Source: a virus. From it: a DNA stretch of 64,000 nt. The number at the start of each line of letters is the position of its first letter. Position 1 is the stretch's first letter. The notes under the pieces were generated by a model. It saw only the letters and a program-made list of their open reading frames with translations, had not been told where the DNA came from and searched no databases. The translations under genes were made by a program, and so were the position numbers. The stretch lies in IMG/VR virus record IMGVR_UViG_3300032782_000001, positions 244,404 to 308,403 of that record; one strand, given 5' to 3'. Positions 12,405 to 49,655 of this stretch are shown here, piece after piece.

Positions 12405-12830
12405 TTGGAATTGATGGAAATCCAGAGGCACTGCAGTTATTGTGGGAAAACCGGCCACGACCGTCGATCCCATTTTAGTGCCATGTCAATGAGAAAGAAC
12501 CAGCCGCGACATTGCAGCCAATGCGGGCACGTTGGTCATGATAGAAGAACCTGCAGTCACACGAGACTTCATCTCTCCGTCAGAAAGTGCTTAGGGGAGA
12601 GACTCGTAGACGGAGAGATCTATCAAGTATTGGAGTGTGGGCACGCTGTCCCGGCCACGTTGGACGCGGACGGAATGTGGGTTCAGGAATGGCGTCAATG
12701 TTACCAGTGTAAAGAAGGAAAGCCGGCTTGCAAACCTCTTTACGAAGGAGAGCCAACCTATGATTTCCGACGCAAATCTTGGAAACAATTCCAATTCAAT
12801 CGTCAGAAATTGACGACAGAATTACAATAG
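12405..12830 (+). CDS. CCHC zinc-knuckle protein (141 aa)
   Basis: Two CxxCGxxGHDRRxC knuckles (CSYCGKTGHDRRSH, CSQCGHVGHDRRTC) plus further Cys/His pairs. Confidence 0.5.
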   Translation: MELMEIQRHCSYCGKTGHDRRSHFSAMSMRKNQPRHCSQCGHVGHDRRTCSHTRLHLSVRKCLGERLVDGEIYQVLECGHAVPATLDADGMWVQEWRQCYQCKEGKPACKPLYEGEPTYDFRRKSWKQFQFNRQKLTTELQ

Positions 12831-13183
12831 TATATTCTGTGGATATTCATCAACTCAAAGCCATCGCAAAACGCGGCGGGATCGTTAAATGGATCGCTTC
12901 GGGCATGTACGAAAAGCTCGGAATGCTAGGAAAGCGAGTCACGGCTCAAGGGCCTAATTCCCCAATCCATTTCTTGTCTGGCGATCGAACCAAATTCCAT
13001 TGTGTTGAAGTGAATCCGAAATCCACGGTCCCCGCGGGAGAATTGTTATTTCCTCGAGGCCCCGTTCCCTACGGATTGATCGTGAGTTCACATTACAAGT
13101 ATAAAGAAACTGTGCGCTTCAAAGCTGAAGCCCGTGAACGTAAGAAGAACATGAAGATCGTAGCTGAAGTCATGGAATCCTGA
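12779..13183 (+). CDS. Small protein with C-terminal VMES tag (family member)
   Basis: Ends ...KIVAEVMES-stop (gtc atg gaa tcc tga), identical to the cluster at 21.7-27.5 kb. The true start may be downstream of the overlap with 12405-12830. Confidence 0.4.
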   Translation: METIPIQSSEIDDRITIVYSVDIHQLKAIAKRGGIVKWIASGMYEKLGMLGKRVTAQGPNSPIHFLSGDRTKFHCVEVNPKSTVPAGELLFPRGPVPYGLIVSSHYKYKETVRFKAEARERKKNMKIVAEVMES

Positions 13184-18668: not shown

Positions 18669-20282
18669 ATGACGATCACTGTCGGCGTGACGCAAACGGC
18701 GTCCGACCTATCCAACGTCATCCAGGCGGTTGTCGTCTTAGGGTCAGATAGCGAGCTTCCCAATCCGCTCGCATCTTTCCTCAGTCCGGACACTTATTTG
18801 TCCGTACTCACTTCATTGTCTATCCAACCCGGGACGTATGACATCGGTCAAATTACCGTTACGTCAGTTAGTTCCCCCATATTTGCACAATTCGCTTACA
18901 GCCTCACTGTCAGGTTCGTCAAAAAAGGAACCGCAGTCACTTCTGCACAGTTCGTGGGGCCGGCAGGACCGGTAGGTCCCCAAGGACCAGCCGGAGAAGA
19001 CGGAGCTCCCGGAGGCCCACCAGGGCCTCAAGGACCAATGGGTCCGGCTGGCCCACAGGGGCCAACTGGAGCACGAGGGCCAACTGGACCGAACGGATCT
19101 CCGGGAGCTCAAGGTCCCATTGGTCCAGCCGGACCATCCGGAGCTAGAGGCGCCACCGGACCGCAGGGAATCCAAGGAGTCACAGGTCCATTCGGTGGAC
19201 CTCAAGGTTCTCAAGGTTCTCCAGGAATTACTGGTTCTCAAGGAGAACCAGGGGTAACCGGAGCGACTGGGCCCCAAGGAACTACAGGTCCTCAAGGTCC
19301 TATCGGGTCCCCAGGGAATCCCGGTAGTCAAGGATCTCCTGGAGTCACAGGGTCTACGGGACCGGCTGGTGCGACTGGAGCACAAGGAGCTACTGGTCTA
19401 CAAGGAGCAACTGGAGCACAAGGAATAACTGGGGCGACTGGACCACAAGGATCAACTGGAGCACAAGGAGCTACCGGTCTACAAGGAGCACAAGGAGCTA
19501 CCGGTCCAACTGGAGCACAAGGAGCTACCGGTCTACAAGGAGCAACTGGAGCACAAGGAATAACTGGGAAAACTGGTGCAACTGGTCCCCAAGGTAGCCC
19601 GGGAGTAACTGGTGCAACGGGGGCTGTTGGACCTCAAGGTGTTACTGGTGCAATTGGACCTCAAGGTTCTCAAGGAAGTCCTGGTGCAACGGGGGCTGCG
19701 GGGGCAACGGGTGCGGTTGGACCTACTGGGTCGCAGGGTATTCAGGGCTCACCTGGGGTCACTGGAGTAACTGGACCTGCGGGAGCTCCTCAAGGGTCAC
19801 CTGGCGTCACTGGACCGCAGGGTCCTACAGGACCACAAGGTGCGACTGGGCCGGCTGGCGGCGGTAGTGCAGTTACAGGAGCGACGGGTCCTCAAGGCGC
19901 AACAGGACCTGCGGGCGCCATGGGCGTCACTGGTCCAATGCGACGGTTCGTTTACCCGACTCCGTCGTTCCCTGTTACAGCTAGCTATATGGCAAGGCCA
20001 TTCGAGAGGGTGTTGTACGCCCCTACGGGGTCAGCATTCACTATTTTTGCTCCGTCGGGGCCTGTGCAAGGCGATCAATTTGCCGTTAAACAAATCACCA
20101 ACAGTCAAACTGCTACCATGACCTTCAACGGCAACAATAATAAAATTGAAGACCCATTTGGTGTAGGACTCCCAGGAGTTACGTCATCCATTATGTCAAT
20201 AGGAGGATACTCCGAAACTTCCATGGTGTGGGAATATGACGGAGTCAACACTTGGTATTTGTTGTTCTTTTGGAGCAACTAG
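18669..20282 (+). CDS. Collagen-like protein with non-collagenous N- and C-terminal domains (537 aa)
   Basis: About 330 aa of uninterrupted G-X-Y triplets ([38 protein letters not shown]...) flanked by a ~95-aa N-domain and a ~110-aa C-domain. Confidence 0.8.
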
Positions 20283-20494: not shown

Positions 20495-21430
20495 ATGTTA
20501 CCAAAAGAGGGTCATTGTATTGTGCGCACCATGAATGTTGCTTTTGATATGGAGACTTCAGATCCAGATGACGTCTTCACACTTTGCTTCTTAGCAGGCC
20601 ATCCGGCCGTAAAACTTCGTGCGGTCACAATAACACCAGGTTCCAAACAACAAATAGGACTGGTGAAACATGTTTTAAAAAGGCTCGGATTAGATATCCC
20701 TATCGGAGCCAGGAAACCGGATCACCCCAAATCTTGTGTTTCGGAATTCCATCACAAGTGGTTCGGAAAGATTGAAGAAGCCGTACCCGATGGATTGGGA
20801 TGGGAAATTCTGTCTTCCGCTTGTATGTCGAGCTTCCCTCTAGCAATTGTTACAGGAGGCCCACTTGGGAATCTCGGGGACATGATCGCTAACGGTCGAA
20901 TTCATGAGTTGAGGGGGCTCATCATTCAGGGCGGATTCGCAGGGGATAACGTGACGAAGCCCGAGCATAGGCTGCCAAAGTTTGCTGGACGAGAAACAGC
21001 ACCAACTTTCAATCTAAACGGGGACGTGAAATCTGCCTGGGCAGTGTTAGCATACCCGAAAGTAGCTAGTCGCAGGCTAGTATCAAAAAACGTATGTCAC
21101 GGGGTCATATATGACCAGCCAATGCATGAACGAATGAAGCCCTTCCGTCACGTAAGTGCCGGGATCGGGATGATGATTGAAGGGATGGAAATATACCTCA
21201 AGAATAAGCCCGAAGGGAAAATCTTCCATGACCCGCTGGCGGCTTGCGTGGCCATCGAACCAGAAGTCTGCGAATTCCGCGAGGTAGCAATCTACAGGAT
21301 CAAAGGGGAGTGGGGATCCAAGTTGGAGTCCGGAACCAAAACGTGGATTTCCACTGCCGTGAACCGAGAGCTTTTCGAACAAGTATTGTCTGGTCAACGA
21401 GGCGGCGGGCGAACTGAGTCACTTCCCTGA
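20495..21430 (+). CDS. Inosine-uridine-preferring nucleoside hydrolase family protein (311 aa)
   Basis: N-terminal FDMETSDPDDVFTLCFLAGHP matches the DxDxxxDD calcium/ribose-binding fingerprint. The following VTITPGSKQQIGLVKHVLKRLGLDIPIGA matches the conserved second block of IUNH enzymes. Confidence 0.6.
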   Translation: MLPKEGHCIVRTMNVAFDMETSDPDDVFTLCFLAGHPAVKLRAVTITPGSKQQIGLVKHVLKRLGLDIPIGARKPDHPKSCVSEFHHKWFGKIEEAVPDGLGWEILSSACMSSFPLAIVTGGPLGNLGDMIANGRIHELRGLIIQGGFAGDNVTKPEHRLPKFAGRETAPTFNLNGDVKSAWAVLAYPKVASRRLVSKNVCHGVIYDQPMHERMKPFRHVSAGIGMMIEGMEIYLKNKPEGKIFHDPLAACVAIEPEVCEFREVAIYRIKGEWGSKLESGTKTWISTAVNRELFEQVLSGQRGGGRTESLP

Positions 21431-21780: not shown

Positions 21781-22122
21781 ATGGGAGACGTCATCTATGC
21801 CTCCGACGAACATTCTCTCTACGGAGAATTATATCGAATTCTCAATGAGCTGGCTTTGGAAACCGACCTCATGGAAAAGGGTATCATCGTCGGATTCCAT
21901 AGGATCGACAATTCTAACTGCAAATATGTATGTCAAATTCAAGACTGGGAGGGGGATGACAGTCCGATCGAATTTGAAAGGAGAATTGAGAAACTGGTAG
22001 AAGGTAATATTCTCATGATTCGACTCCAAGGACGGGGAGCCGATTGCAGATTTTACGTGATTGCGGAAACCATAGAAGAAGCTTTAGGGAAAATTACCGT
22101 GTTCCAGATCATGGAATCATGA
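21781..22122 (+). CDS. Small protein with C-terminal IMES tag (113 aa)
   Basis: Ends ...VFQIMES-stop. Its stop overlaps the stop of the convergent IMES gene inside a palindrome. Confidence 0.5.
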   Translation: MGDVIYASDEHSLYGELYRILNELALETDLMEKGIIVGFHRIDNSNCKYVCQIQDWEGDDSPIEFERRIEKLVEGNILMIRLQGRGADCRFYVIAETIEEALGKITVFQIMES

Positions 22123-22134
22123 TTCCATGATCTG
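22105..22134. repeat. Perfect 30-bp palindrome cagatcatggaatcatgattccatgatctg formed by two convergent genes that both end QIMES-stop
   Basis: Read directly. Each arm encodes I-M-E-S-stop for the gene on its strand; the stops overlap. Confidence 0.6.
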
Positions 22135-22350
22135 ACGAACAATATGCACATCACAAGAATCGTCTTTCTCGGGCTGACTATTGAAAGACATCATACCGCA
22201 TCGGTCGCATTTCTGTGCAACCATGGCAGGGTCGTATGACCAAGTCATATTAACGTGGACCTCTACAGATTCTTTGTTAGGCTTTTCAGCTCGTACACAC
22301 AGAAATGATTGGTCCTCGCCGTCTACGACATCGCGCCATTTATGATCCAT
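22117..22350 (-). CDS. Zinc-ribbon protein with C-terminal IMES tag (77 aa)
   Basis: CDRCGMM...DSCDVHIVRQIMES-stop. Confidence 0.5.
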   Translation of the reverse strand: MDHKWRDVVDGEDQSFLCVRAEKPNKESVEVHVNMTWSYDPAMVAQKCDRCGMMSFNSQPEKDDSCDVHIVRQIMES

Positions 22351-23591: not shown

Positions 23592-24023
23592 ATGAACTTT
23601 CCGGAAACCACCATGCAGTCCCAAGCTGATGTGGAAAATATTCTGGCGAAGGTTGCCTTCCGGCCCAGTTGTGTGAACCTCGACTGGAAATGGGAATTGA
23701 AGCCCGTTTATTCGGCTCCTCCCGAATCCGATATTTCAGGATGGCTCATCCGGACCTCATTCGTCAGACCTGACACGGATAGCGGAGAAATCCAGCGAGG
23801 ATTTGGAAGGTGGGAATATGTGGAAAAAGGAACTTCAATCAGCGGAGTTGTGAAAACTTGCTGGCTCCTCGCCGAACTCATCGTACGGCATGAACTCATG
23901 GAAGCTTTCACCTACGAAGGATCGAAGATCTTTGATCCTCATCACGCTGTAGGTATTTTGAAGTCAGCTCAGACCGTTCAGATCATCATGAATCAAAAAG
24001 AGCAAGCAAGCCCAAGCCCATAA
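23592..24023 (+). CDS. Hypothetical protein (143 aa)
   Basis: ORF track. Confidence 0.4.
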   Translation: MNFPETTMQSQADVENILAKVAFRPSCVNLDWKWELKPVYSAPPESDISGWLIRTSFVRPDTDSGEIQRGFGRWEYVEKGTSISGVVKTCWLLAELIVRHELMEAFTYEGSKIFDPHHAVGILKSAQTVQIIMNQKEQASPSP

Positions 24024-24025
24024 AG

Positions 24026-24421
24026 TTAGCTAGACATAACTTCAGTAACACAACATTCTTCATCAGAATGATGATTTCCAGCAACCATCGTTCCGCATTT
24101 CCAACAGAACATCTCGAGGATGAACACGGCAACGGTCCGACGCCCGGAAGTGTCTGCCATATGTTTGGAAATCAATTTCCGCACGTTCTCAGGAAAGAAA
24201 TTATCTCTCGTGCGACTGAAATTCCCGAGGGAAATAGTCCAATGACGATTTTCCACTGGATCAATCATCGTCCCGTCTTTATCGTATCCAACTGACGTCC
24301 AACCCAAAAGAGGTGGGAAAACCCCGGGAATGTCAGCACAAATGACAGAATCTCCTGTGCGCCTGACATGCTCGTGCATATCTTCAAAAAGTTCGCGCAC
24401 AGTTTGGAAGAGAACTTGCAT
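24026..24421 (-). CDS. Zinc-ribbon protein with VMSS C-terminus (tag variant, 131 aa)
   Basis: CWKCGTMVAGNHHSDEECCVTEVMSS-stop. Confidence 0.45.
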   Translation of the reverse strand: MQVLFQTVRELFEDMHEHVRRTGDSVICADIPGVFPPLLGWTSVGYDKDGTMIDPVENRHWTISLGNFSRTRDNFFPENVRKLISKHMADTSGRRTVAVFILEMFCWKCGTMVAGNHHSDEECCVTEVMSS

Positions 24422-24436
24422 TGTAGAGTTGTCTCT

Positions 24437-24904
24437 ATGCCCGTAGAACCTAACCCGTACGATACACCTGAATTGATTGAACTCCGGAAGGGTCAGGGAG
24501 ACCCTCTCATTCTATATCTGATTGTCCGGGAATCACTCGGAATGGGCGTGGGGAAAATTGCGGCCCAATGCGCTCATGCTACTCAAATGGTGATGTTGCG
24601 ACACCTTGAGTTGGAAAGAGACGCATGGGAAAATCAAATGTCACCAGCTCATTCACCGAGTCATGAAGCTGCCCAAAAACTTCGCAGTGTCGTAGAAGAA
24701 TGGCTCCGAACATCCTTCCGAAAAGTCGTCCTAAAGGCTGACGATAAAGAATGGGCAAAAATCAAAGAAACGGTAAACGTCTTCGTCGTTAAGGATGCCG
24801 GGTTGACCGAAGTGGAAGCTGGTTCAGAAACCGTGATGGCGCTCTGGCCAATGCGGAAGAGCGAAGCTCCGAAAATTATCCAAAGACTTCAGGTCCTGAA
24901 ATAG
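24437..24904 (+). CDS. pth2: Peptidyl-tRNA hydrolase, PTH2 family
   Basis: LILYLIVRESLGMGVGKIAAQCAHA and VFVVKDAGLTEVEAGSETVMALWP correspond to the two signature blocks of archaeal/eukaryotic PTH2. Start set at the internal ATG 24437 so the gene does not overlap gene 24026-24421. Confidence 0.6.
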   Translation: MPVEPNPYDTPELIELRKGQGDPLILYLIVRESLGMGVGKIAAQCAHATQMVMLRHLELERDAWENQMSPAHSPSHEAAQKLRSVVEEWLRTSFRKVVLKADDKEWAKIKETVNVFVVKDAGLTEVEAGSETVMALWPMRKSEAPKIIQRLQVLK

Positions 24905-25162
24905 TCAGGATTCCATGACATCACGAACGATGCAATGAGGGCAACCACTCTCTGCCCCATCGTCTGTCATCTTTTTACAAATCGGGCAGGGAGGATCAGG
25001 CCAATCCACAAGCATGGACCGCCGAGGCTGACTAATGTAATCGATAGTCTGCCGGATGGGGTCCGTATTCGGAACGACCAATTTCTTGATAATAGGGAAC
25101 GAAAACTTCTTGAATTCAGGAACGTCAACCATTTCAAGACCCCATGATTTGGGCGACGACAC
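24905..25162 (-). CDS. Zinc-ribbon protein with C-terminal VMES tag (85 aa)
   Basis: CPICKKMTDDGAESGCPHCIVRDVMES-stop. Confidence 0.5.
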   Translation of the reverse strand: MSSPKSWGLEMVDVPEFKKFSFPIIKKLVVPNTDPIRQTIDYISQPRRSMLVDWPDPPCPICKKMTDDGAESGCPHCIVRDVMES

Positions 25163-25299
25163 ATTCTTCTTCTGTATGCACTAATCCACGCTCGACTAAG
25201 AGCCTGCACTTCTCGCAAGAAATCAAAACGACGAATTTCTTCGGGCCTTTCATGTTGACCCGAATCACCTGTGTGATTTCAAATTCAGGACATCGCATG

Positions 25300-25701
25300 T
25301 CAAGACTCCATGACTTGAATCACAACACAAGCTTCTTCGGAATGAAGATGCTCACGACCTTCCAAAATGGTCCTTCCACAATCTAAACATGAATAAATAC
25401 GCATCATGCCTTCTTCCGGCATCAAATCAGACAGTGTCATTTTCTTGAGAGGAGTCGTTTCTAATTCCTGACGGATGGGCATCCTTCCAATAAACTCTGG
25501 CTCGGATTCCCGATAAACCGCCCCCGTAAATTTCAAATTAACCACGTCAGGATTCCATGATGGAGCGAACGGTGCATTCAAGACAACCGAGTTCGGCTCC
25601 GTTATCGGAGTCAAGTAATCCGCAGATCCGACAAGGGACATCTGGAAGTTGACTGACTGGCGAACGCCGTCGGACTTCACCTGCGACCCAGAGACGGTCA
25701 T
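25300..25701 (-). CDS. Zinc-ribbon protein with C-terminal VMES tag (likely shorter, from an internal Met)
   Basis: CLDCGRTILEGREHLHSEEACVVIQVMES-stop. The track ORF overlaps the upstream IMES gene by 155 nt. Starting at MPIRQ... would remove the overlap. Confidence 0.45.
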   Translation of the reverse strand: MTVSGSQVKSDGVRQSVNFQMSLVGSADYLTPITEPNSVVLNAPFAPSWNPDVVNLKFTGAVYRESEPEFIGRMPIRQELETTPLKKMTLSDLMPEEGMMRIYSCLDCGRTILEGREHLHSEEACVVIQVMES

Positions 25702-25798
25702 TGATGTCGGACATAATGCTTCGTCCGAGTTTTGCTCGCTTCTCAGGATCTAGAAGACACTGTTTGACGAATTTGATCTTATCGTCTTCGTGAGACAC
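25547..25798 (-). CDS. Zinc-ribbon protein with C-terminal IMES tag (83 aa)
   Basis: CRICGLLDSDNGAELGCLECTVRSIMES-stop. Confidence 0.5.
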   Translation of the reverse strand: MSHEDDKIKFVKQCLLDPEKRAKLGRSIMSDINDRLWVAGEVRRRSPVSQLPDVPCRICGLLDSDNGAELGCLECTVRSIMES

Positions 25799-26209
25799 TC
25801 ACAACATTACACGCAAAATCCGAAGGGCGCGTGTTACATCATCATCAGATAGGCCTAGGGAGTTATCTACACGGATGAACTCCGGTCCAAAGCCTCCCAA
25901 ATCCCTATCGTCGAGGATCAAGAATTGATCCGGGTGATTCTCTTGTACCCAAGCAAGAATACCCTGGACACGGTCTTCCGCAACGTCCAAAGCCTCGAGA
26001 CGAGGTCCAGTATATCCAGAAGCCCTGAAGATAATTTCAAGCTCGTCCGGTTCAAACCGAATCCGCCAAAGAGAAGTCACGACCACACGAACATGTGGAA
26101 TCGCGGCGAGCTCATTGAGACGAGCTACTAAATGCCGTTCCAAAATTCCTGGTCGAAAAGCTCCACCGAGGTTTAGAACGCCGTCGATGTCCAGGAAGAT
26201 GACTTGCAC
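25799..26209 (-). CDS. HAD-superfamily phosphatase-like protein (136 aa)
   Basis: N-terminal VIFLDIDGVLN is the HAD motif I DxDG(T/V) nucleophile block. Confidence 0.45.
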   Translation of the reverse strand: MQVIFLDIDGVLNLGGAFRPGILERHLVARLNELAAIPHVRVVVTSLWRIRFEPDELEIIFRASGYTGPRLEALDVAEDRVQGILAWVQENHPDQFLILDDRDLGGFGPEFIRVDNSLGLSDDDVTRALRILRVML

Positions 26210-26212
26210 GAA

Positions 26213-26779
26213 CTAAGATACGACGACAGAATCGAGATCTACAAGCTTCAAGATCCCATCCGAAGTCCGCATAACGTTGCCAGGATTCACATCCACGTGA
26301 ACAGTTCCGCTTTCTTCCAGTCTATCGTACAATTCCAAAGCATCGTCGAGAAAGTGGGATCCCATGTATTGCTTGATGGGCTTCCCAGAAATTTTGGCTC
26401 GAACGATAGCAGCAACTTCTTCCGCGTTGTCTGCCGGCTCGAGCTTCTCCATTACGTAGTAGTACGCCCAGCCTTGGGATCGACCAACACCTGGATTGTC
26501 GATCTCGCACAGAACGTCTGCTTCGTAGATTCTCGGATAAACTGTAGCGTCTTTCCCCATCAAACGTTTGATTTCCGCTACACGGTCTCGGGCGTCCTCC
26601 TCGTCAATCGCTACTTGGATCTTCAGAACACGGTCGCCCAAATCATAGACTTCACCCTGCCTTCCTGAACCAAGAAGTTTCCCGAGATCAGGAAAGGACA
26701 CATCACAGGTGTCTTGAACAGCGTCCATCATGCCGCCGGCAAAGATGGTGAGGGCAGTACGATAGAGCTTCATGATCAA
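26213..26779 (-). CDS. Minimal eukaryotic-like protein kinase (188 aa)
   Basis: Gly loop LGSGRQGEVY, VLKI (VAIK Lys), catalytic-loop-like HVDVNPGNVM (HRDLKPxNI) and LVDLDS (DFG-like) in the right order and spacing for a truncated ePK fold. Confidence 0.5.
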   Translation of the reverse strand: MIMKLYRTALTIFAGGMMDAVQDTCDVSFPDLGKLLGSGRQGEVYDLGDRVLKIQVAIDEEDARDRVAEIKRLMGKDATVYPRIYEADVLCEIDNPGVGRSQGWAYYYVMEKLEPADNAEEVAAIVRAKISGKPIKQYMGSHFLDDALELYDRLEESGTVHVDVNPGNVMRTSDGILKLVDLDSVVVS

Positions 26780-26824
26780 GAGAGCTCCATCCAGATGTCC
26801 ATGCTTGGACAGGAAACTAAAGAG

Positions 26825-27040
26825 TTAGCTCTCTATGACGGACCGAATGACACATTCAGGACACCCGTCGTCAGCTCCACCGTCGTTTACGATTACGCCG
26901 CTATCAATTACAAAGATCTTCTTGCAACTCGCACACGGTTTATCGTAATCCCGTGTAGTTCGAGCAGGGAGGGTCATCGCTCGTGCCAGTGCGAGCCTTC
27001 CCGCATGCGTAGAAATGATCTGTGTAATCACGGAGTCCAT
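26825..27040 (-). CDS. Zinc-ribbon protein with C-terminal VIES tag (71 aa)
   Basis: CASCKKIF...DDGCPECVIRSVIES-stop. Confidence 0.5.
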   Translation of the reverse strand: MDSVITQIISTHAGRLALARAMTLPARTTRDYDKPCASCKKIFVIDSGVIVNDGGADDGCPECVIRSVIES

Positions 27041-27259
27041 TCAGAATTCCATCATTTGTATGGCCTGCGAAGCTTTGTGATACCTGATTTGAGTATTTCA
27101 TAACATCGGAGACAATCCCGGTTCCTATGAATTTTGGAGAGTTGTTGGTTACCAAGCTTGAGCGCCCGCTGCCTCGTCGCCGCTTGGACGCGAACACGAT
27201 GGGTCCTCCAGGGGTTACCACCATTCGCCCATATGATCCATTCTCTTAGCTTCATTAAT

Positions 27260-27490
27260 CTAGCTCTCCATCACTTGCATTACAATACACTCTTCCGGAG
27301 AATGATGGTGTCCATATTTGAATGTGAATCCGCAATCGTCACATTTCGTTATTAACGAGATCTCCATGAATATAGGCTGTGGATCCACGTGGTAGACCAC
27401 TAGAGTTTGTGGCTGGAGTTCCATCTTCTTGGGTGGAAGATCTGGTCCATTCCAGCGAATTTCGCCAATATCAAAAGATTCTGGCATCAT
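27260..27490 (-). CDS. Zinc-ribbon protein with C-terminal VMES tag (76 aa)
   Basis: CDDCGFTFKYGHHHSPEECIVMQVMES-stop. Confidence 0.5.
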   Translation of the reverse strand: MMPESFDIGEIRWNGPDLPPKKMELQPQTLVVYHVDPQPIFMEISLITKCDDCGFTFKYGHHHSPEECIVMQVMES

Positions 27491-27774
27491 TCAATAACCT
27501 TGACGAAAGGAATCGATTTAGCTAATTTTACGTATCGAGCCAAAGAGCCGCGAAGGGATTTGGAAGAGCCTGCAGGCAGTTTCACAAACTGAATCTCTAC
27601 GGTCGGATAGAAATCACCGGCTTCCGCATGACATTGGACACTTTGAATGAGTCCAATCGGCTTACCATGAATCTGGACCCTTGTGCATCCAGCGGGGAAT
27701 CCGAATTCCAAAGTCAACGGGCGTGCAACCGCAAGATCAGCTGCCATGGAGAACAATACAAAAGAATCATGCAA
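27487..27774 (-). CDS. Hypothetical protein (95 aa)
   Basis: ORF track. ATG overlaps the downstream gene. Confidence 0.35.
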   Translation of the reverse strand: MHDSFVLFSMAADLAVARPLTLEFGFPAGCTRVQIHGKPIGLIQSVQCHAEAGDFYPTVEIQFVKLPAGSSKSLRGSLARYVKLAKSIPFVKVIE

Positions 27775-27826
27775 CTTCGGTTTGCACGTCCCTACGTCGT
27801 CTCAACCGGAAAGTTGGAATGTCCAT

Positions 27827-27857
27827 TAGCCTACCCGGTTTCTCACCGGGTAGGCTA
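27827..27857 (-). terminator. Strong hairpin (13-bp stem around gcctacccggt/accgggtaggc, 5-nt loop) 17 nt downstream of the 1557-aa gene stop
   Basis: Read directly. T-run only on the plus side. Confidence 0.35.
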
Positions 27858-27873
27858 GGTAGATTGAGCAGTT

Positions 27874-30800
27874 TTAAGCGCTGATGCGGATCTGAAGGGT
27901 GCTTACAACGTATTCCAGCGGGAACACCGGTACGTAGATCGAATTGGTCCGCATGATGGTCGGATCGCTGTCATCCACGGCTGCGGAGATACCCGAAACC
28001 TTGGCGACAATCTGGCTATCGATCAAACGTCCGAACATTGCAGTCAACGCACGTTCCGTCGTCTTAATTAGGGTGCCCGTGAACTTCTGCCCGATGAACG
28101 GATCAAGAGTCGTTCGGACGCTCTGTTGCACGAATTGAATCGTGAGGGTAACAGACGGCGTACGGGTAATGACCGTGTCAGTCCGGGTCGTCAAACCGTG
28201 GCGGACACGAAGTCCGGAGTCCACAAGCTCGATAACCGAGACTCCAGAGACCGCCACTTGATTGGCTTCCGTGGGGTCAAGAAGCCTTCCCGGGCGAACA
28301 AACCCGAGAACAGGGCGTCGAGTCCAAGGAGAAGCCACGTCAATAGACGGAGTGCAAGTCGTCGCAGCCAGAGAAGCCGCAACGTAGGACCCGTCCACGA
28401 GTTGGTTTGAGATGTTGCCGAGGCTATCTTGAACTCCGATGAGGTAGGAGTCTGGATAGACCACCACCATGAGTTCGCTGGCCAGTCCTTGCGCAATAGC
28501 CTGAGCAGCCAACGGATTAGTACCCGCTGCCACTCCAACCACGCCCATCCGCTCTCCCTCTTGACGCGGAGAGCTCATCACAACGCAGTGCTGGTTCAGG
28601 TAGGCGAAAATCGCCGGATCCGTGCCCAGCGGCGTAATGATGTCAGGCTTGACATTGCCTTGAATTGGCTTGCGAAGCTCGTCGATCGCGGCCGTGAAAG
28701 ATCCGACGGAGGCTTGAGAGGTCCCAGGGACCTTCAAAACCTGCTTCAAACCCACGAGGACAGCTCCATTGAGCAATGCGAGACGAGCTCCAAGCGAGAG
28801 GGGGAACTCCGGAGTAGGAGGCCCGAACGCTGCTTGAATCGATTTCGCATCCCGGTAGAGCGCCGCTGAAAGATCGGTCTTCGCGAAGTTGTACGACACG
28901 TAATAAATGTCGCCGATCTGAGGCTCGTTGCCGCTCCTACCAAAGGTCTGCACGATTCCAGTCGTATCAATACCCATGTTCAAGGTATTGAACACCGTAG
29001 TTTCGAGACCCGGGATGGAGCGGTATGGAATGGAAGCGTCGGCCGTGAAGGTAGAATTCACGATGAGCGTGAACGTTCCACCGTTCGCGTAATCTCCCGC
29101 GGACGCAGGGAGAACAGTGAACCTGAGGCCCGTGATAGCATCCGTATAGGTCTGACCGGGGAATCCGACGCCAAACGAACCATTAGGATTCGTCGAAGTA
29201 ACCGTGTAACCTGCACGTGCAGCTTCACCAGCATCTCCGGAAGCACCAGGAACGATCCCGATACCCGTATCCGTTACGAAGATCGTGTTGGCGACCGACG
29301 TGAAGGACAGAAGACTGCCCGTACCGGCGGTCCTTGAGTTAATCTCGAGGTACCCACCAATTCCCGCCGACGTAATGCGGTAAGCCACAGCCAAAGCATT
29401 GAAGCTGCCGTTGGCGTTCAGAGCTCCCGCAATATCGGAGGCAAATGGCTGATGACGGAAAGTCGCATTTCCAGAGGTGAACCCGAGAATGGTGTTCGCG
29501 GAACCCTGGTTGATTCGAACAAGAGAAGTGACCGTATTGGTCCTTGAGACCATGACCACTTCACCAGCGTTGATGCCGAGGCCTTCCTGAGCCACAAGCT
29601 CCGCAAGAACCGACGTGACAATGTTCACAGTGTCGTTGACAACGTGAACGCCAGCTTGCGTCCTGTGCGAGTTATACTTGCTCTTGAGCTCCTCCGCCAA
29701 AATGAGTGCCGAGCGGAGGTCCGTCGCATCCGGCGCTGCTACAACGTTGACCGTATCGGTCATGGGGTGATATGCACCGCCAACGTTAGTCCGGTGGTTG
29801 TTGTAATCACCCTTCGCCTCGTTCAGAAGGGTGATGGAGCTTGCCAGATCCGTCGCATTGGGCGAAGTAATCCCGTTCGCAACGTCTGCCACCGTATGGA
29901 AAACGGCTGATGCGATGTGCGTGTTATACTCGGACTTAATATTGTTGGCGAGTACGACCAGCGCTGCAGTTTGAGTTGCCTGATCTGCTGCTGGTGCGTT
30001 TGCCGAGTATCCGGCGTTGATGTACGCAACAACATCTTCGATGGAGACTGAAACGCCAGCCGGCAAAATGGCGACGTAATCAGTACCATCAATCGTGAAT
30101 TGGAAGTTGTCGTTTACCGCCGCGGTGATAGCGAACGGTGCCGTCTTCGTTCCAACTTGGATCGCCGGCTGATTGATAGCGTTGTAAGAACCCGTCGATT
30201 CTTGATTCGGAGTGAAACCCAGTGCCGGAGCGGCATCCGTCTGTCCAGGCGCCGTGGGAGAAAGAACCTTGACGTTAGACTTGAGTCCGTTAGTCGCCGA
30301 GAGTACGTTGCGTCCAACGACCTTAAGAATCGACTGAACGCCGTAGGTAACCACCGACGCGAGATTGTTCGGCGCCGTCGAAGCGAAAGTACCGGAACCA
30401 TCTGGATGCACTTGCACATCCGCATCGATCGCCGTGTTGATGTCCGTTGCAACCTGCGCAAGCGTGGTAGCTGCAGAAACATCAATCGGCGCAATGTTGA
30501 CACCATCCACTTGGATCACAAGGTGATCCGTAGCTTGGAAGACCAACGCGCCGGGGTTACTGATGGGTTGCGAGAGAAGCTGCGCCACATAGGCCAGCGA
30601 AAGATCCACGGTGAATGCGGGGTTACCGTCAACCACCACACCACCGAAGTTTTTCGTGGCGAGATAGACGTCGTACGGCTCGGCCCCGGCATTCGAGAAA
30701 GAAGCGTGAGTGGCCGGCTCCAACGCATTGCTGAAAGCAATGGTGACCGTTTCAGATACGGGATTCCCACCGAAGTGGATGGCGTCAGTGACGTTCTCCA

Positions 30801-34804: not shown

Positions 34805-35137
34805 TCACGAACCGCGACGACTACGACGGGACTTCTTGGGCTCCATTCCCACGTCAGTCGAGCTGGATGACTCGCCAGACTCCATAGACGGAGCATCATC
34901 AGACGATGAATCATCAAGAGGAGCATCTCCTTCAGAAGGAGGATCCTCTACTTGAGGCTCTCCGTCAGGGACAACGGGCAAATCTTCCGGATCTGCATAC
35001 AACACCACATCCAATGAGTGCTGCGCGTTGTGGAGAACAACATCCTCCTCGGTCAGGACGATGTGAGGAACTTCGACTCCCTTATAGTTCGGCATTTGGC
35101 ACCTACCGATCGGTGAATCGGAAAAAAGGTCGCTCAC
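34805..35137 (-). CDS. Acidic hypothetical protein (110 aa)
   Basis: ORF track. Asp/Glu/Ser-rich C-terminus. Confidence 0.35.
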   Translation of the reverse strand: MSDLFSDSPIGRCQMPNYKGVEVPHIVLTEEDVVLHNAQHSLDVVLYADPEDLPVVPDGEPQVEDPPSEGDAPLDDSSSDDAPSMESGESSSSTDVGMEPKKSRRSRRGS

Positions 35138-36183
35138 TCTTCAGACTGACTCAGTAGCAAAAGTCCAGTCGCGACGGCCGTCATAGGGTCTTTAGCGGCC
35201 CTGATTTCTGAAATTTGGATGGGAAACTTAGCACGATGAATTTCAAACCGTTCTTTGAACTTATCAAGAAATCCGGAAGCCAAAGAAGTTCCTCCACTGA
35301 CTACGAGAGGTACAGGCTTCGGGACCAGAAGCTCTTGACGAGCTTTTGAAAATTGTTGGATGATGGTATCAATGGAATAGTCAATGAGCGCTTGAATAAA
35401 TAACGCAATGGCTTCACCTTCAAGAGAACTCGATTTTTTACTAATGTCAATCCCACTTTCTTTAATGGAACAAATTTTGGCGGCTGTCGTACTGACAGCT
35501 TTGGCAGCTCCGGAGTCTACCCAATCTCCTCCGCGTCCTACGGAAAATTCCAGAGCGCTCATAGCATTGTAACTAAGACAAACGTTAGTCATGCCGGAGC
35601 CATACGAAATGCCGAGACCTGAAAAATTCTCTTTGGAACATTCCGAGAACACGATGGCCTGAGCCTCATTGGCAGGTTCAGCAGTAAATCCAAGTTCTGT
35701 CAAAATCTTCTTGAGAATAGCAGAGTGGTAAGTAACATCTGAACCTTGCACGTCAACAGCTGGAGCTGGCACTGAATAGACACATTTTTCACCGGACTTA
35801 CGAGGAGCACCCAAAATTCTCTTGATCATCAGAGCGATGACTTTTTGCGCATCCACCTCACCGGGGGTGATCACACCACCAGACATTGGACGACGAGCTT
35901 CTCGATTAAATAAATTCGCCGTCTCTAAGGCTTCATCCCCAATGATCAAAAGTTTCCCATCAAGCTCGACATGACTCGTGCCTGACAGTTTCAACATTCG
36001 CATATTTCGGTTATCAAGAGGTAAATCGATGAAGGCATCCCTGATTCTAGTAGTTTTGACAGTCTTCCCATTTTGACGGGCAGACACAAAGTTCATAGTA
36101 CCGGCATCAAGTGACGCTCCTGCGACAGCGGTATCATCGATGTCGTCAAGGTCAACACTAAACTTGGTCTCATTCTTCGCCAT
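35134..36183 (-). CDS. Actin-like ATPase (ParM/MreB/Alp superfamily, 349 aa)
   Basis: Phosphate-1 SLDAGTMNF, phosphate-2 GLGISYGSGMTNVCL, adenosine motif LVVSGGTSLASGF, in the canonical order. Confidence 0.5.
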   Translation of the reverse strand: MAKNETKFSVDLDDIDDTAVAGASLDAGTMNFVSARQNGKTVKTTRIRDAFIDLPLDNRNMRMLKLSGTSHVELDGKLLIIGDEALETANLFNREARRPMSGGVITPGEVDAQKVIALMIKRILGAPRKSGEKCVYSVPAPAVDVQGSDVTYHSAILKKILTELGFTAEPANEAQAIVFSECSKENFSGLGISYGSGMTNVCLSYNAMSALEFSVGRGGDWVDSGAAKAVSTTAAKICSIKESGIDISKKSSSLEGEAIALFIQALIDYSIDTIIQQFSKARQELLVPKPVPLVVSGGTSLASGFLDKFKERFEIHRAKFPIQISEIRAAKDPMTAVATGLLLLSQSEE

Positions 36184-37391: not shown

Positions 37392-37607
37392 TCAGCTCCC
37401 CATAACTTCATAGATGATTTCTTCTTCAGGAGATAACCACTGAAGACGTATATTCCAAAAAGGAACTGCCGGACGATTACCGCGTTTTCGTTTTTCTTTC
37501 CAACTGACGGGTACGCATTCTTGGACGACCCAAATCTGATCCCCTTGGATTCGAAAAACAGTCCCCGGTTCATGGTATCGGGTCGCGTCTCTCTGAACCA
37601 TGATCAT
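37392..37607 (-). CDS. Small protein ending EVMGS (possible divergent VMES-family member)
   Basis: Track ORF 37392-37709 overlaps the upstream gene. The internal MIM start at 37605-37607 lies just after the TAA at 37612. C-terminus is IIYEVMGS-stop. Confidence 0.35.
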   Translation of the reverse strand: MIMVQRDATRYHEPGTVFRIQGDQIWVVQECVPVSWKEKRKRGNRPAVPFWNIRLQWLSPEEEIIYEVMGS

Positions 37608-37611
37608 GAAA

Positions 37612-38943
37612 TTAGGAACGTCTGTTTGCATTTTCGTAGGACACTGTAGTGCCTCGGATTTCACGTTCATCCGGAATCGAAGCAGCTTCAGTAACCATCG
37701 GAGTAGCATTACCCTTGCCTGGAATTGTATATCGCGTCTGAGGGGCTACCAGTACAGAAGTATCAAGAACTGGAACTTGATATCGAATATCTGACTCATC
37801 AAACTTGGACACATTGAAGAACTGTGCGAGTTGCATGCCACGGTTACTGGGCATCCGAACTGGTCCAACAGCATATCTGTCGCCGTTGAGTTTTACAATG
37901 AAATCTCGCTGAGAAATAAGAGGGCTCGGTAAAGCCCAAACTTCATATGAATGTTCAACCGTACGACCACGAGCACTTTGAGCAATAGACTTAGCGGCAT
38001 CATCTGGAGAGATATCGATGTCATACGGACCATCATACCCACCGATTATTCCTGTGCCATAACAAACAAGACAATCTGCACTAGGTTGTCGGTGCAGACT
38101 GGAATAACATCCACACTTTGGTCCTGCGGCCCGGCGGATCATTAATTTGACTCTCTCGCCGCCTTGTTCCAACATCCAACGTTGGCGGCGAATAGCTTCA
38201 CGCCAAATGTAATCGAGCTTCTCAATTTCAAAATTATTCGCTATGGCGGCATCTTCTAAACGTGTTTCGAGAAGCTGGCCACTATCCGCATCATAAGCTA
38301 CGGTTGTGATACGATAGAAAATGCGTTGAGCAAGAGTAGTAGGAACTTGATTTGACAAGTACCTGTACGTAGCCAAAACGATGGAGTTAGGGTCTTTTGG
38401 TAAAACAGCATTCGTTTGAATTTGACTAGCTACATCAAACGTAGGCTCGCGACGAAGTTCCACTTCCCCTCTAGTCGCGTTTATGGATTCAACAAACGCA
38501 GGAACCCCATCAACGGTTACTTGAACATTCAAATTTGTAATATTGGCAGATCCGGGAGAAGGATATATGACGATCGGATTATATCGAGTCCGAAACTCGT
38601 AACGTCCGTCTCCGTCTGAGCTAGGTCCACGAAAGAAAAAATTTTTAGAAACATCTTCCTGGAGAGCTAGGACAGTCCTCGTACTATCACGCCAATAAGC
38701 TGCGCCTACGGGGACAGTATTAAGACGCTCATATGGGCCGTACTCGGAGTCAAAACTCCTGTAAATATTGACCCCTAAAAGATCGAATCGAGAATTCGCT
38801 TGTAATTCTCCCGGCAGGGTCCAGCGAATGTCGAACGTCTCTTTTAGAAAACCTGAAGATACGAATATATTCAGTGGGGGTAGAGGTAAAGCAGGTGAAT
38901 CCTGCTCCAGAATCCCAATTTTCCTGTCCGGCGGGAAAGGCAT
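37612..38943 (-). CDS. Structural protein carrying the repeated beta-sandwich domain (443 aa)
   Basis: RYEFRTRYNPIVIYPSPGSANITNLNVQVTVDGVPAFVESINATRGEVEL parallels the repeats of the 1557-aa protein. Confidence 0.5.
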   Translation of the reverse strand: MPFPPDRKIGILEQDSPALPLPPLNIFVSSGFLKETFDIRWTLPGELQANSRFDLLGVNIYRSFDSEYGPYERLNTVPVGAAYWRDSTRTVLALQEDVSKNFFFRGPSSDGDGRYEFRTRYNPIVIYPSPGSANITNLNVQVTVDGVPAFVESINATRGEVELRREPTFDVASQIQTNAVLPKDPNSIVLATYRYLSNQVPTTLAQRIFYRITTVAYDADSGQLLETRLEDAAIANNFEIEKLDYIWREAIRRQRWMLEQGGERVKLMIRRAAGPKCGCYSSLHRQPSADCLVCYGTGIIGGYDGPYDIDISPDDAAKSIAQSARGRTVEHSYEVWALPSPLISQRDFIVKLNGDRYAVGPVRMPSNRGMQLAQFFNVSKFDESDIRYQVPVLDTSVLVAPQTRYTIPGKGNATPMVTEAASIPDEREIRGTTVSYENANRRS

Positions 38944-43044: not shown

Positions 43045-43689
43045 ATGACAGCGACCAGTCCGGGGCTCGGCTCGTGGTGGATGTACCCCATGAAACCAGC
43101 TCGAGTCACGGAAGCCGTCCTATCATCCATCAACCCATCCGACTACTTGATGGAAAAGAAGTATGATGGATGGAGGGCTATCCTAATTGTCAGTCATGGG
43201 ATTCCCGAATTATGGACCAGGGAAAGGCGACGCATCGAGATGCCGACGAATCTCGACAACCAACTCCGATCGCTCAAGCTTCCAGAGGGCACTGTCCTCG
43301 ACGGGGAAATCTGGAACCCTGAGAAGAGGGGAGGGTGGAAACACGCCAAAGGCGTTGAATGTCAAATCACCTTTTGGGACGCCATCCGAAAAGGAAATCA
43401 AGATCTTAGTCGGAATCCACTCGAAGAGCGAAAAGAACGACTTCGGAATCTAGTATCTCCCACTGATTGTGTGAAAATCGTGGAAGACTTTCCGGCAACT
43501 GTAAAATCAATCGCTGCCGCAAGGGCAGAGGCAATTAGCGCCCGAGGGAATGCGCGTTCTGGATTCGTACATGGAGTGGTGATCAAACGTCGAGAGTCCC
43601 CCCGGCGTGATCACGCCACTAAGTCCCATGAACATTCGGATTGGATGAAAGTGGTTTTCGACGGCATGTCAGGGTGGGCGCCTAGGTGA
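43045..43689 (+). CDS. Minimal ATP-dependent ligase-type nucleotidyltransferase (214 aa)
   Basis: Motif I EKKYDGWRA (KxDGxR), motif III VLDGEIW, motif IV HGVVIKRRES, motif V-like WMKV. No OB domain. DNA versus RNA ligase versus capping-type cannot be decided. Confidence 0.45.
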   Translation: MTATSPGLGSWWMYPMKPARVTEAVLSSINPSDYLMEKKYDGWRAILIVSHGIPELWTRERRRIEMPTNLDNQLRSLKLPEGTVLDGEIWNPEKRGGWKHAKGVECQITFWDAIRKGNQDLSRNPLEERKERLRNLVSPTDCVKIVEDFPATVKSIAAARAEAISARGNARSGFVHGVVIKRRESPRRDHATKSHEHSDWMKVVFDGMSGWAPR

Positions 43690-43931
43690 AATTCCACGAA
43701 TGGAAAGACACTGGGATCAGAGCCACCGATTTGCGCTCCTTCGGACGGTCGAAAAAGAAAATGTCCCGGTACGAGTGCACGAAATGTGGACTCGTGATGA
43801 ACATTTCAGATGTCGATATTCAAATCGAAAAGAAAAACCCCGGGCATATCCACACCGTCGCTAAGGAAACAGTTCAGTCTGATTTCCAAGACTGTGATCT
43901 CACAATCGTGGCTATGGTGATGAAGACTTAG
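43686..43931 (+). CDS. Small zinc-ribbon protein (81 aa)
   Basis: CTKCG...H.H. ATGA overlap with the ligase-like gene. Confidence 0.35.
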   Translation: MKFHEWKDTGIRATDLRSFGRSKKKMSRYECTKCGLVMNISDVDIQIEKKNPGHIHTVAKETVQSDFQDCDLTIVAMVMKT

Positions 43932-45421
43932 CCGTCGTCTTTCGCCAAAAGAGGCTTCAGCCCGGCTGCCTTTCGGAATTCATCTTCCACCCATTGACGA
44001 GCTGAAACTATATCTTCAGATGAAAGGCGCTCATGTGACACCCAAGAACGATATTCACCTGGGGTACCTTTGTATAGAACAACATCTTTGGAAAAATCCA
44101 ATGATGCCTTGTCGAATTGAATGTTATGCTTTTCAGGGGATTCGAAAATAGGAGTACCTTCATACGGAGTCGTAATCGAAACATCCGCGTCATCAAGGCC
44201 CTCTTGAGCCATGAGGACAAGCCAATTTCTGAGTGCAGAAATAGTTTCAGGAGTCTCACCGGGAAGACCAACTTGAGTGAAGACTTTAGGGCGGATCCTG
44301 TACTTCACACAGAGACGGACAAACGCCGTGTTATCCTCAACTGTTGCACCTTTCCGAATATCGCGGAGAATCTTCGGATCCGCGGCTTCTGCGCCAGTAC
44401 ACATTTGAACGCATCCGGCTTCCGCCATAGACTTGAAGATAGAATCAGTTGTTAAGTTCTTCCCATTCTTGAAGAAAGCCCTCCAGAGAATTCCTTCTTC
44501 CTTTAACATTGGAAGGAATTTGCTCATGAAATCTGGCCTCAAGTTGATTTCATCATCGTAAAACATGAAAGCCCGCCATCCGTACATCTCACGGACATGA
44601 CGGATCTCTTCACGGACTTTCTCTGAAGATTTCGCTTCGAGTTTCCGATACCCATCCCAGTGTGAACAATAGGTGCACGCAAAAGGACAGCCGGTAGCGC
44701 TTACAATAGAAGTAGCCCGTTCTCCACCCACGAGATAATTGTAACTTTTGAGGTCAATAAGATCTCGAGCCGGGAGAGGCCATCTGTCATTCTGATAGAC
44801 GACACCGTCATGCATTAAGTGTGAAGCTTCTTCCTTGGAAAGACGGCTGGGTAGTTTAATGATGCGTTCATTCTGTTCCCAACCAATTTCGCAATTATCC
44901 TTGAGTATGCGCAACTGGTTGGTCTTTCTACTAAGCTCTGGTTTATTAGCGAGTCGCTCAGTAGAACGAGATATTCTGTTCAACAATTCGATGAAGCCAG
45001 GCTCCCCACCACCACCACCTTGATCCGAGACTACGACGTAGTCAAACGCGTCGTCGAGACACCTGGACGGTGCAGTGTTGGCATGAGGACCTCCAATAGC
45101 AGTGATGCATTTAGGATTATGGGTCCGAATGAAAGCATTCAGTTTTACAACTTGAGGATGTTGCGCAGCAAGAGAATAGAACCCAACGAGATCCGCGTCT
45201 TGAGCCATTTCCCAAAGGTATTTTTCAGCTTCATCCATGACAGCGTCATAAGACGCGTGAACAATCTCAGGATGTCGTTGCTTATACCCAGTCAGGTCAG
45301 CTACTCGGATTTCATGACCGAGTTGCCTCGCCACTGCCCCGATTTGGAGTGGACCTAAGAAGGGAAAGGCCCTGTCATCAAGGAGAAAGGGGGAGGGAGG
45401 AATAACAAGACAAATCCGCAT
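43928..45421 (-). CDS. B12-binding-domain radical SAM enzyme (class B, 497 aa)
   Basis: N-terminal Rossmann-like B12-binding region followed by ATGCPFACTYCSHW (CxxxCxxC). Confidence 0.65.
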   Translation of the reverse strand: MRICLVIPPSPFLLDDRAFPFLGPLQIGAVARQLGHEIRVADLTGYKQRHPEIVHASYDAVMDEAEKYLWEMAQDADLVGFYSLAAQHPQVVKLNAFIRTHNPKCITAIGGPHANTAPSRCLDDAFDYVVVSDQGGGGGEPGFIELLNRISRSTERLANKPELSRKTNQLRILKDNCEIGWEQNERIIKLPSRLSKEEASHLMHDGVVYQNDRWPLPARDLIDLKSYNYLVGGERATSIVSATGCPFACTYCSHWDGYRKLEAKSSEKVREEIRHVREMYGWRAFMFYDDEINLRPDFMSKFLPMLKEEGILWRAFFKNGKNLTTDSIFKSMAEAGCVQMCTGAEAADPKILRDIRKGATVEDNTAFVRLCVKYRIRPKVFTQVGLPGETPETISALRNWLVLMAQEGLDDADVSITTPYEGTPIFESPEKHNIQFDKASLDFSKDVVLYKGTPGEYRSWVSHERLSSEDIVSARQWVEDEFRKAAGLKPLLAKDDG

Positions 45422-45436
45422 TTGTCTTCCATCGAA

Positions 45437-48641: not shown

Positions 48642-48649
48642 GCCTAACG

Positions 48650-49654: not shown

Positions 49655-49655
49655 A

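Follow-up and report, generated by a model that had tools for sequence, protein, structure and literature searches.

The Kinase-PolyVal domains (PF18762) were described as domains of the polyvalent proteins of phages, and stand-alone versions of them exist (Iyer et al. 2017, PMC5512222). In its passages on kinases, the same paper predicts that phage kinases without the C-terminal subdomain phosphorylate proteins like the T7 kinase does; this kinase, Gp0.7, is a host-takeover enzyme that phosphorylates translation factors (cited in PMC5512222). Subdomains VIII-XI are missing from OspG and NleH, and yet both are active protein kinases (PMC12756638). HAD phosphatases of the SAK type, for their part, are predicted to be stand-alone RNA 3'-phosphatases in the RNA repair of jumbo phages (PMC7824862). 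Here we analyse a gene pair that brings together these two kinds of protein, namely a very short protein-kinase-like protein (called mini-kinase in the following) and a HAD_SAK_2 phosphatase. It is encoded in a stretch of 64,000 nucleotides, positions 244,404 to 308,403 of the IMG/VR record IMGVR_UViG_3300032782_000001, and we refer to this whole stretch as the window. The window is part of a metagenome contig of 337,333 bp (ENA ERZ27256589), which we take to belong to a huge phage because of its 337-kb extent and because its relatives are found on IMG/VR viral contigs. What is new here, as far as can be read from the sequences, is a stand-alone kinase of huge phages that has no C-terminal lobe (C-lobe) and that is tied to a SAK-type HAD protein in one clade.

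The mini-kinase and its family

An initial annotation of the window had placed a kinase and a phosphatase next to each other on the minus strand. Both open reading frames (ORFs) are present at these coordinates, and all the kinase motifs that had been named (the Gly-rich loop, the VLKI lysine, HVDVNPGNVM and DLD) are found. The kinase gene and its motifs are given below; conservation in the mini-kinase family was determined throughout from an alignment of 60 members.

26213..26779, minus strand: mini protein-kinase-like gene, 188 amino acids (aa) from TTG at 26779, or 186 aa from ATG at 26773
26645..26671, minus strand: Gly-rich loop G37-S-G39-R-Q-G42-E-V-Y45, G39 and G42 invariant
26621..26623, minus strand: the 'VAIK' lysine of strand beta3, K53 (in V-L-K53-I), invariant
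26276..26299, minus strand: catalytic loop H161-V-D163-V-N-P-G-N168 (then V-M), D163 invariant, H161 conserved in 90% and N168 in 93%
26231..26239, minus strand: DFG equivalent D181-L-D183, D181 invariant, position 183 always Asp or Glu

The public ENA gene call of this ORF uses the ATG at 26773 and thus has 186 aa. In the whole alignment there are only five invariant columns, that is, G39, G42, K53, D163 and D181. The first glycine of the loop, G37, is conserved in 87% of the sequences, position 43 is Glu in 70% and Gln in 13% of them, and the DFG motif has the family form D-[LF]-[DE]. The invariant residues are exactly the catalytic ones, which argues against the mini-kinase being a dead enzyme.

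After D181-L-D183 we find just S-V-V-V-S and the stop codon, and the chain ends seven residues past D181. The protein retains only the N-lobe, the hinge, helices alphaD and alphaE, the catalytic loop and the DFG strand; subdomains VIII-XI (the activation segment, the APE motif and helices alphaF-alphaI) are missing, and so is the P+1 loop. The match of the Pfam Pkinase profile fits this picture. It spans profile positions 4-143 of 263, which is the first half of the kinase domain, and with E = 0.0037 and 17.1 bits it does not reach the gathering cut-off of 31.7. A profile made from the 60 sequences, on the other hand, matches 574 protein kinases in the PDB (best E = 5e-8). The description of a stripped-down kinase resembling the eukaryotic type, and far shorter than canonical kinases, was therefore accurate. 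A PDB search with the single sequence had designed pentatricopeptide repeat (PPR) proteins on top, with real kinases weakly below; the former match involves one helix and was rejected as an artefact.

The initial annotation had also proposed a comparison of structures. The AlphaFold model of the kinase (predicted local distance difference test, pLDDT, 79; predicted template modelling score, pTM, 0.73) consists of an N-lobe sheet with one long helix, followed by two helices and short strands, after which the chain ends. With this model Foldseek returned 317 matches to PDB kinases, and the predicted structure thus has a kinase fold. Judged by its sequence, ORF 26213-26779 is a stripped-down eukaryotic-type protein kinase with the catalytic residues in place, and not a chance match to motifs. 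We consider the mini-kinase to be a real and conserved kinase core without subdomains VIII-XI, and probably an active one.

A profile search of 1.8 billion representatives gave 220 clusters at E <= 0.001, mostly of 170-210 aa, and the matches to the family profile extend to the C-termini of the cluster proteins. The close homologues of the window kinase (n = 9) all have 143-204 aa. Furthermore, the number of residues that follow the Asp of the DFG equivalent has a median of 9 and a range of 4-25 in the 60 sequences. The truncation of the C-lobe, as these lengths indicate, is a trait of the whole mini-kinase family.

The IMG/VR loci with a mini-kinase are mostly located on contigs of 266-480 kb, and one IMG/VR genome contains two copies. 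A tblastn search against cultured phages gave no match for the window kinase, nor for one distant member of the family. There is no PHROG family for the mini-kinase (the window kinase has weak partial matches, four other members have none) and no dedicated Pfam family; a UniProt member from an uncultured phage bears the automatic name "Protein kinase domain-containing protein". A search for fusion partners was negative: P0015, P0065, P0067 and P0126 have N-terminal extensions for which Pfam, PHROGs and the PDB gave no match. Three longer hits of the family search (P0157, P0042 and P0107) match the profile in several separate stretches, which suggests that they carry tandem kinase-like domains. 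In two of these there is in addition a match to the minimal CRISPR polymerase (mCpol) domain, namely in P0107 and, just under the Pfam cut-off, in P0042.

The HAD phosphatase and its linkage to the kinase

The second gene of the pair follows the kinase at a distance of one codon. Its features are listed below, with invariance judged over nine homologues.

25799..26209, minus strand: HAD_SAK_2 phosphatase gene, 136 aa, GTG start
26210..26215, minus strand: kinase/HAD junction, kinase stop codon TAG at 26213-26215, one spacer codon, then the HAD GTG
26171..26197, minus strand: HAD motif I, F-L-D7-I-D9-G-V-L-N (nucleophile Asp and acid/base Asp), D7, D9 and G10 invariant
26072..26077, minus strand: HAD motif II, T45-S46, S46 invariant
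25970..25972, minus strand: R80, the presumed Lys/Arg of HAD motif III, invariant
25907..25912, minus strand: HAD motif IV, D100-D101, both invariant

The protein begins with MQVIFLDIDGVLN, and the HAD nucleophile motif that had been noticed there belongs to a clear member of the HAD_SAK_2 family (PF18143; E = 4.9e-21 with a score of 76 bits, the cut-off being 27.5; residues 3-125 align with profile positions 1-139). The corresponding PHROG match is phrog_1818 (E = 4e-20), and searches of the PDB by sequence or profile gave nothing usable. In the structural model (pLDDT 80, pTM 0.81) strands and helices alternate in a bare Rossmann-like core, and there is no cap module. From sequence and model, ORF 25799-26209 is a predicted capless HAD phosphatase with all four motifs intact. 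Its homologues are hypothetical proteins that stand alone in varied contexts, in bacteria as well as in 206 cultured phages.

Reading the sequence directly, we found no Shine-Dalgarno sequence ahead of the HAD start, from which we infer that translational coupling with the kinase is likely. A scan of 24800-27900 for promoters and terminators gave fewer sites than were found in shuffled sequence. Kinase and HAD are in the same frame in the window, and a fusion of the two by readthrough of the stop codon was considered. It was rejected, since the frames differ in L001-L003; in addition, the long standard-code ORFs of the window, for example one of 1557 aa, show no recoding.

Kinase and HAD adjoin in all six loci of the close clade, in which the kinase is at least 45% identical to that of the window. 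Apart from the window itself these are L001-L004 (52-58% identity) and L036 (45%). In L002 the kinase stop and the HAD start overlap, and in L036 the two genes are convergent, with overlapping 3' ends. Kinase and HAD are the only genes that the six loci have in common. Since the adjacency is seen in six loci out of six, once in a flipped arrangement and with no other gene shared, we consider the two genes to be functionally linked, and treating them as a pair was justified. On the other hand, a HAD gene within 5-6 kb of the kinase was found in none of about 26 more distant loci of the family. Most kinases have no HAD neighbour, which implies that the phosphatase would be dispensable for the basic role of the kinase. 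In summary, gene order identifies the kinase-HAD pair as a functional unit in one clade, and not as a property of the whole family.

Among the distant relatives there is a syntenic group, L009-L027, in which the conserved neighbours of the kinase include, as judged by eye, 5'-3' exonuclease-like and P-loop kinase-like proteins. These were discarded as a functional clue, because they reflect synteny of the whole region.

Could the two genes have unrelated functions and an inherited synteny, or could the kinase be an ATP-binding pseudoenzyme or a scaffold? That the linkage is limited to one clade would agree with this, as would the varied contexts in which the HAD family stands alone in the 206 cultured phages and in bacteria; for a pseudoenzyme one could point to the fact that a conserved alphaC Glu is not found and that N168 is Ala in some members. 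However, the adjacency has outlasted the loss of all other shared neighbours as well as the inversion in L036, in the window stop and start are coupled, in L002 they overlap, and the residues that are invariant are precisely those needed for catalysis. We therefore regard this explanation as quite improbable.

Possible substrates of the pair

The reading that we favour, if only tentatively, is that of a protein-directed kinase/phosphatase pair of a huge phage. Both enzymes would be active, they would probably be made together by translational coupling, and they would act on the same macromolecular target. The kinase would most likely phosphorylate a host protein, or one that belongs to the translation machinery, in the course of the takeover, by analogy with T7 Gp0.7, and its substrate would be recognised by docking and not via an activation segment. 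In the close clade the HAD protein would then reverse or limit this phosphorylation, as in pairs of the PrkC/PrpC type. Such co-operonic pairs of a Ser/Thr kinase and a phosphatase are common in bacteria. We favour a protein as the substrate because of homology, the best matches of the mini-kinase being Ser/Thr protein kinases, and because of the precedent of the truncated kinases introduced above.

Several points weigh against a protein-directed pair. In the predicted helix alphaC (residues 60-74) no conserved Glu is found in the family, and the sole candidate for this role is D59 at the start of the helix, which is acidic in 72% of the members. His or Asn occupies the place at which Ser/Thr kinases have the Lys of the catalytic loop, the D-x-D/E motif resembles that of the APH, choline-kinase and Kdo kinases, and N168 is replaced by Ala in the remaining ~7% of the members. 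Elements for the binding of peptides are no longer present in the mini-kinase. The majority of the family has no HAD neighbour, and several divergent members lie in tRNA arrays or near RNA/DNA ligases. Finally, the role predicted for HAD_SAK_2 is that of an RNA 3'-phosphatase, not of a protein phosphatase (PMC7824862).

As a separate observation, homologues of translation factors are encoded near the kinase in two other loci: an eIF-1A/IF1-like protein at L036 3073-3297 and EF-Ts at L005 548-1135.

The initial annotation had suggested a substrate of its own. It held that the pair lies among proteins that all end in Glu-Ser, and that it may act as a phospho-switch on this tail or on co-packaged cargo. 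The features concerned are the following.

26825..27040, minus strand: small CxxC...CxxC protein upstream of the pair (context), tail ..SVIES
25547..25798, minus strand: small CxxC...CxxC protein downstream of the pair (context), tail ..SIMES, begins right after the HAD stop codon
21418-27490, plus 12779-13183 and 37392-37709, both strands: ORFs with [VI][MI][EG]S tails

Altogether 13 or 14 ORFs of the window, on both strands and including the two that flank the pair, end in [VI][MI][EG]S, while the word "all" goes too far: the PTH2 gene and the ORFs at 23592-24023 and 27487-27774 end differently. The N-terminal parts of the VMES-tail ORFs appear to be unrelated, and many contain CxxC...CxxC. 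The codons of the tail vary (AGC, AGT, TCA, TCC and TCT for Ser, GAA and GAG for Glu), and such synonymous variation indicates that selection acts on the tail at the level of the peptide, not on a DNA motif.

Some of these ORFs overlap. The 83-aa IMES ORF at 25547-25798 shares 155 nt, in another frame, with the 133-aa VMES ORF at 25300-25701; of the two, only the latter has been kept in the public gene calls, and an internal start at ~25482 would abolish the overlap. The convergent ORFs 21781-22122 (plus strand) and 22117-22350 (minus strand) both end in IMES, and at 22108-22131 their 3' overlap forms a perfect palindrome, ATCATGGAATCATGATTCCATGAT. In L002 (194-5604) the pair, with a kinase 52% identical to that of the window, is embedded in an array of small Cys/His proteins, at least 11 in number. 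Their tails, ..[ED]E[YF]E[AV]xKxxxE, are like the ..EECxVxQVMES of the window but have no terminal Ser. Both kinds of tail may be C-terminal helices that are homologous and belong to one multigene family.

In a switch of this kind the pair would add a phosphate to, and remove it from, either the C-terminal Ser in the ..VMES tails or co-packaged cargo. Two VMES-type ORFs do flank the pair directly, within a cluster of 13-14, and the tail is selected as a peptide; the pairs in L002 and L003 are also surrounded by small proteins with similar tails, and the L008 kinase lies near VMES-tail ORFs. However, in L001 (16 kb) and L004 the pair occurs without such tails, the tails of L002 do not have the Ser that would be modified, L008 has tails and a kinase but no HAD, and both the tails and a HAD are absent from the large L009-L027 group. 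Moreover, a Ser at the very C-terminus offers no downstream residues that could be recognised, and the mini-kinase has no peptide groove, as the activation segment, the P+1 loop and alphaF-alphaI are missing. We conclude that a phospho-switch on the Glu-Ser tail or on packaged cargo is not supported; it appears very unlikely.

Genes for tRNAs and for enzymes of RNA metabolism are found next to several mini-kinases. In L008 (1121-9645; a 393 kb phage) the kinase gene at 5938-6606 on the plus strand lies inside 14 tRNA genes of the opposite strand, together with VMES-tail ORFs. There are nine tRNA genes around the kinase of L030, six just upstream of the pair in L003 and one beside the HAD gene in L036. 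In L031 (4893-8634) the order of genes is HNH, kinase, ClpP, ATP-dependent ligase, Nudix and Thg1-like protein. In the window, a PTH2-type peptidyl-tRNA hydrolase is encoded at 24368-24904 on the plus strand (E = 3e-22).

An alternative to a protein substrate is that the pair heals the ends of RNA, in particular of tRNA, as an analogue of T4 Pnkp that has been built from different parts. The mini-kinase would phosphorylate the 5'-OH, the SAK-type HAD would remove 3'-phosphates, and a ligase would reseal tRNAs that had been cut by anticodon nucleases of the host. The order of the genes, first kinase and then phosphatase, is also the order of the domains in Pnkp, and the tight coupling and the kept adjacency would suit two activities that are needed at one break. 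Arrays of tRNA genes are found at most 1 kb from the kinase or the pair in L003, L008, L030 and L036. A T4 Rnl1-type RNA ligase (L030 1833-3071) lies ~2 kb from the L030 kinase, the kinase of L031 has a ligase, a Nudix enzyme and a Thg1-like tRNA 5'-end repair enzyme downstream of it, and the PTH2 gene of the window is 900 bp away from the pair. The HAD family itself has been assigned to RNA repair, as a stand-alone 3'-phosphatase in jumbo phages (PMC7824862).

On the other hand, the best matches of the kinase in both sequence and structure are protein kinases, and both proteins of the pair are acidic, with isoelectric points of 4.6 and 4.8. To our knowledge no kinase with the protein-kinase fold phosphorylates polynucleotides, all known 5'-kinases being P-loop enzymes, so that end healing would be without precedent in this fold. 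No RNA ligase was seen in the 64-kb window; the sole candidate is a protein of 214 aa with a ligase adenylation domain (43045-43689, plus strand; PF01068, E = 6e-9; no OB domain) that is encoded 17 kb away. Neither a ligase nor a P-loop polynucleotide kinase is on record in any of the six kinase-HAD loci, nor beside the bacterial or cultured-phage homologues of the HAD protein. Proximity is a weak argument in any case, as tRNAs, ligases and small ORFs cluster in variable accessory regions, and in L031 the ClpP gene separates the kinase from the ligase. An RNA end-healing pair thus seems somewhat unlikely to us. It is equally doubtful that the mini-kinase is the first polynucleotide 5'-kinase with a protein-kinase fold and, together with the SAK HAD, a non-homologous replacement of Pnkp in the healing of tRNAs. 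If this were true, it would explain why kinase and phosphatase are kept as a pair in this order, why tRNA arrays adjoin it, and why divergent relatives have an Rnl1-type enzyme, a Thg1-like protein or a ligase nearby, and with RNA ends as its substrate the kinase fold would have acquired a new enzymatic use.

Motifs of the catalytic half bear on a further alternative, namely that the kinase phosphorylates a metabolite (a sugar, a nucleoside, a lipid precursor or an antibiotic-like compound) and that the HAD acts in the same pathway. One typically finds the HxD[HN]xxN loop and the D-F/L-D/E motif in the atypical and small-molecule branches (APH, choline-kinase, Kdo), and the weak Pfam matches among the 60 members are distributed over APH (8), Choline_kinase (7), ABC1 (7) and Kdo (4), against 23 for Pkinase. 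A missing protein-docking lobe would matter less for such substrates. Some capless HADs, too, use small substrates; GmhB and HisB-N are examples. A nucleoside hydrolase of the inosine-uridine type is encoded 5 kb from the pair (20495-21430, plus strand; E = 1e-13). However, small-molecule kinases of the same fold normally need extra C-terminal helices for their pocket, which are absent here, no genes of a metabolic pathway are kept next to the pair, and the strongest matches are still protein kinases. A small-molecule pair is in our view unlikely.

Most of the large ORFs in the remainder of the window have no Pfam match. Those with a match include a collagen-repeat protein, the PTH2 hydrolase, the nucleoside hydrolase, an actin homologue and a glycan-synthesis cluster. 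No ORF of the window was matched to structural families in Pfam or PHROGs; the ORF of 1557 aa has only a sub-threshold match to DUF2460 and none in PHROGs. The actin homologue is a Volactin-type protein of 349 aa (35134-36183, minus strand; Pfam Volactin, E = 4e-70). Volactin is an archaeal actin homologue, and its presence in a huge phage is unusual. The glycan-synthesis cluster (43928-54585, minus strand) encodes a B12-binding radical SAM protein, two GT1 glycosyltransferases, two NAD epimerase/dehydratases and a GT2-TPR-methyltransferase-GT1 fusion of 1122 aa. Collagen triple-helix repeats are strong at 18669-20282 on the plus strand (E = 2e-45, seven stretches) and weak at 57361-59097 on the minus strand. 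In 60001-64000, at its right end, the window becomes richer in G+C, the content going up from ~0.47 to 0.62.

Comparison with known systems

With ~150 residues from the Gly-rich loop to the end, the mini-kinase family comes close to the shortest natural catalytic core of a protein kinase seen in this analysis. Its catalytic residues are strictly conserved across ~220 clusters despite the loss of the activation segment and of the alphaF scaffold. If active, such an enzyme would test how much of the kinase fold is needed for catalysis and how a kinase that has no C-lobe selects its substrates. The family would be an unannotated part of the host-takeover or repair toolkit of uncultured huge phages, and the pairing gives the HAD_SAK_2 family a concrete partner.

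The Kinase-PolyVal domain is similar to the mini-kinase in several respects. According to the kinase passages of its description, it is a phage member of the Ser/Thr/Tyr superfamily that has lost the C-terminal subdomain and has kept the residues for ATP binding and phosphotransfer (PMC5512222), and its profile is ~160 positions long. Of the features that are given there as diagnostic, a Glu just before strand 2 is present in the mini-kinase, if it corresponds to E43 as we read it. The conserved Gln in the N-lobe's final strand is missing, the strand being A-Y-Y-Y-V-M-E-K-L, and so is the His-Asp insert in the catalytic loop, which reads H161-x-D163. The hidden Markov model of Kinase-PolyVal does not match the window kinase at E <= 1, and it matches one of the 60 family members. 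Furthermore, the mini-kinases are stand-alone proteins of huge phages, whereas Kinase-PolyVal is described in the same passages as a domain of polyvalent proteins, and these passages do not mention a pairing with HAD. While phage kinases without a C-lobe are thus already known, the mini-kinase family is, by comparison with these passages, one that has no match to the PF18762 model and does not have two of the three diagnostic features of Kinase-PolyVal.

OspG and NleH share with the mini-kinase the loss of subdomains VIII-XI (PMC12756638). These proteins of Shigella and enteropathogenic Escherichia coli (EPEC) are type III secretion effectors, which depend on E2~ubiquitin for their activation and do their work inside eukaryotic cells, whereas the mini-kinase is encoded by a phage, with no secretion context. 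Activation by E2~ubiquitin or a role as a secreted effector is therefore unlikely for the mini-kinase. In sequence, OspG and NleH were not seen to be closer to it than kinases in general. In OspG some tens of residues follow the DFG region, against a median of 9 in the mini-kinase family. T7 Gp0.7 is, like the mini-kinase, a phage-encoded member of the protein-kinase superfamily, but it shows no sign of this type of truncation or of a phosphatase partner, and the only similarity is a weak PHROG match of one mini-kinase relative (phrog_15752, E = 0.0097).

For the phosphatase, the closest described proteins are the HAD_SAK_2 members of T4-like and Vibrio phages, for example ORF101 of ValKK3 and gp229 of Citrobacter phage Miller. 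They have the same motifs and are 31-34% identical; these proteins of cultured phages are annotated as hypothetical, and no mini-kinase lies next to them.

As a pair, finally, the two genes can be compared with T4 Pnkp. The kinase of Pnkp is a P-loop enzyme, whereas the mini-kinase has the protein-kinase fold; its phosphatase is a HAD of the PNK-HAD family, here it belongs to the SAK family; and Pnkp is a single polypeptide, while here we see two genes, which are in different frames in L001-L003. In spite of these differences, both are phage-encoded, in both the kinase comes first and a small capless HAD phosphatase second, and the two activities are needed together.

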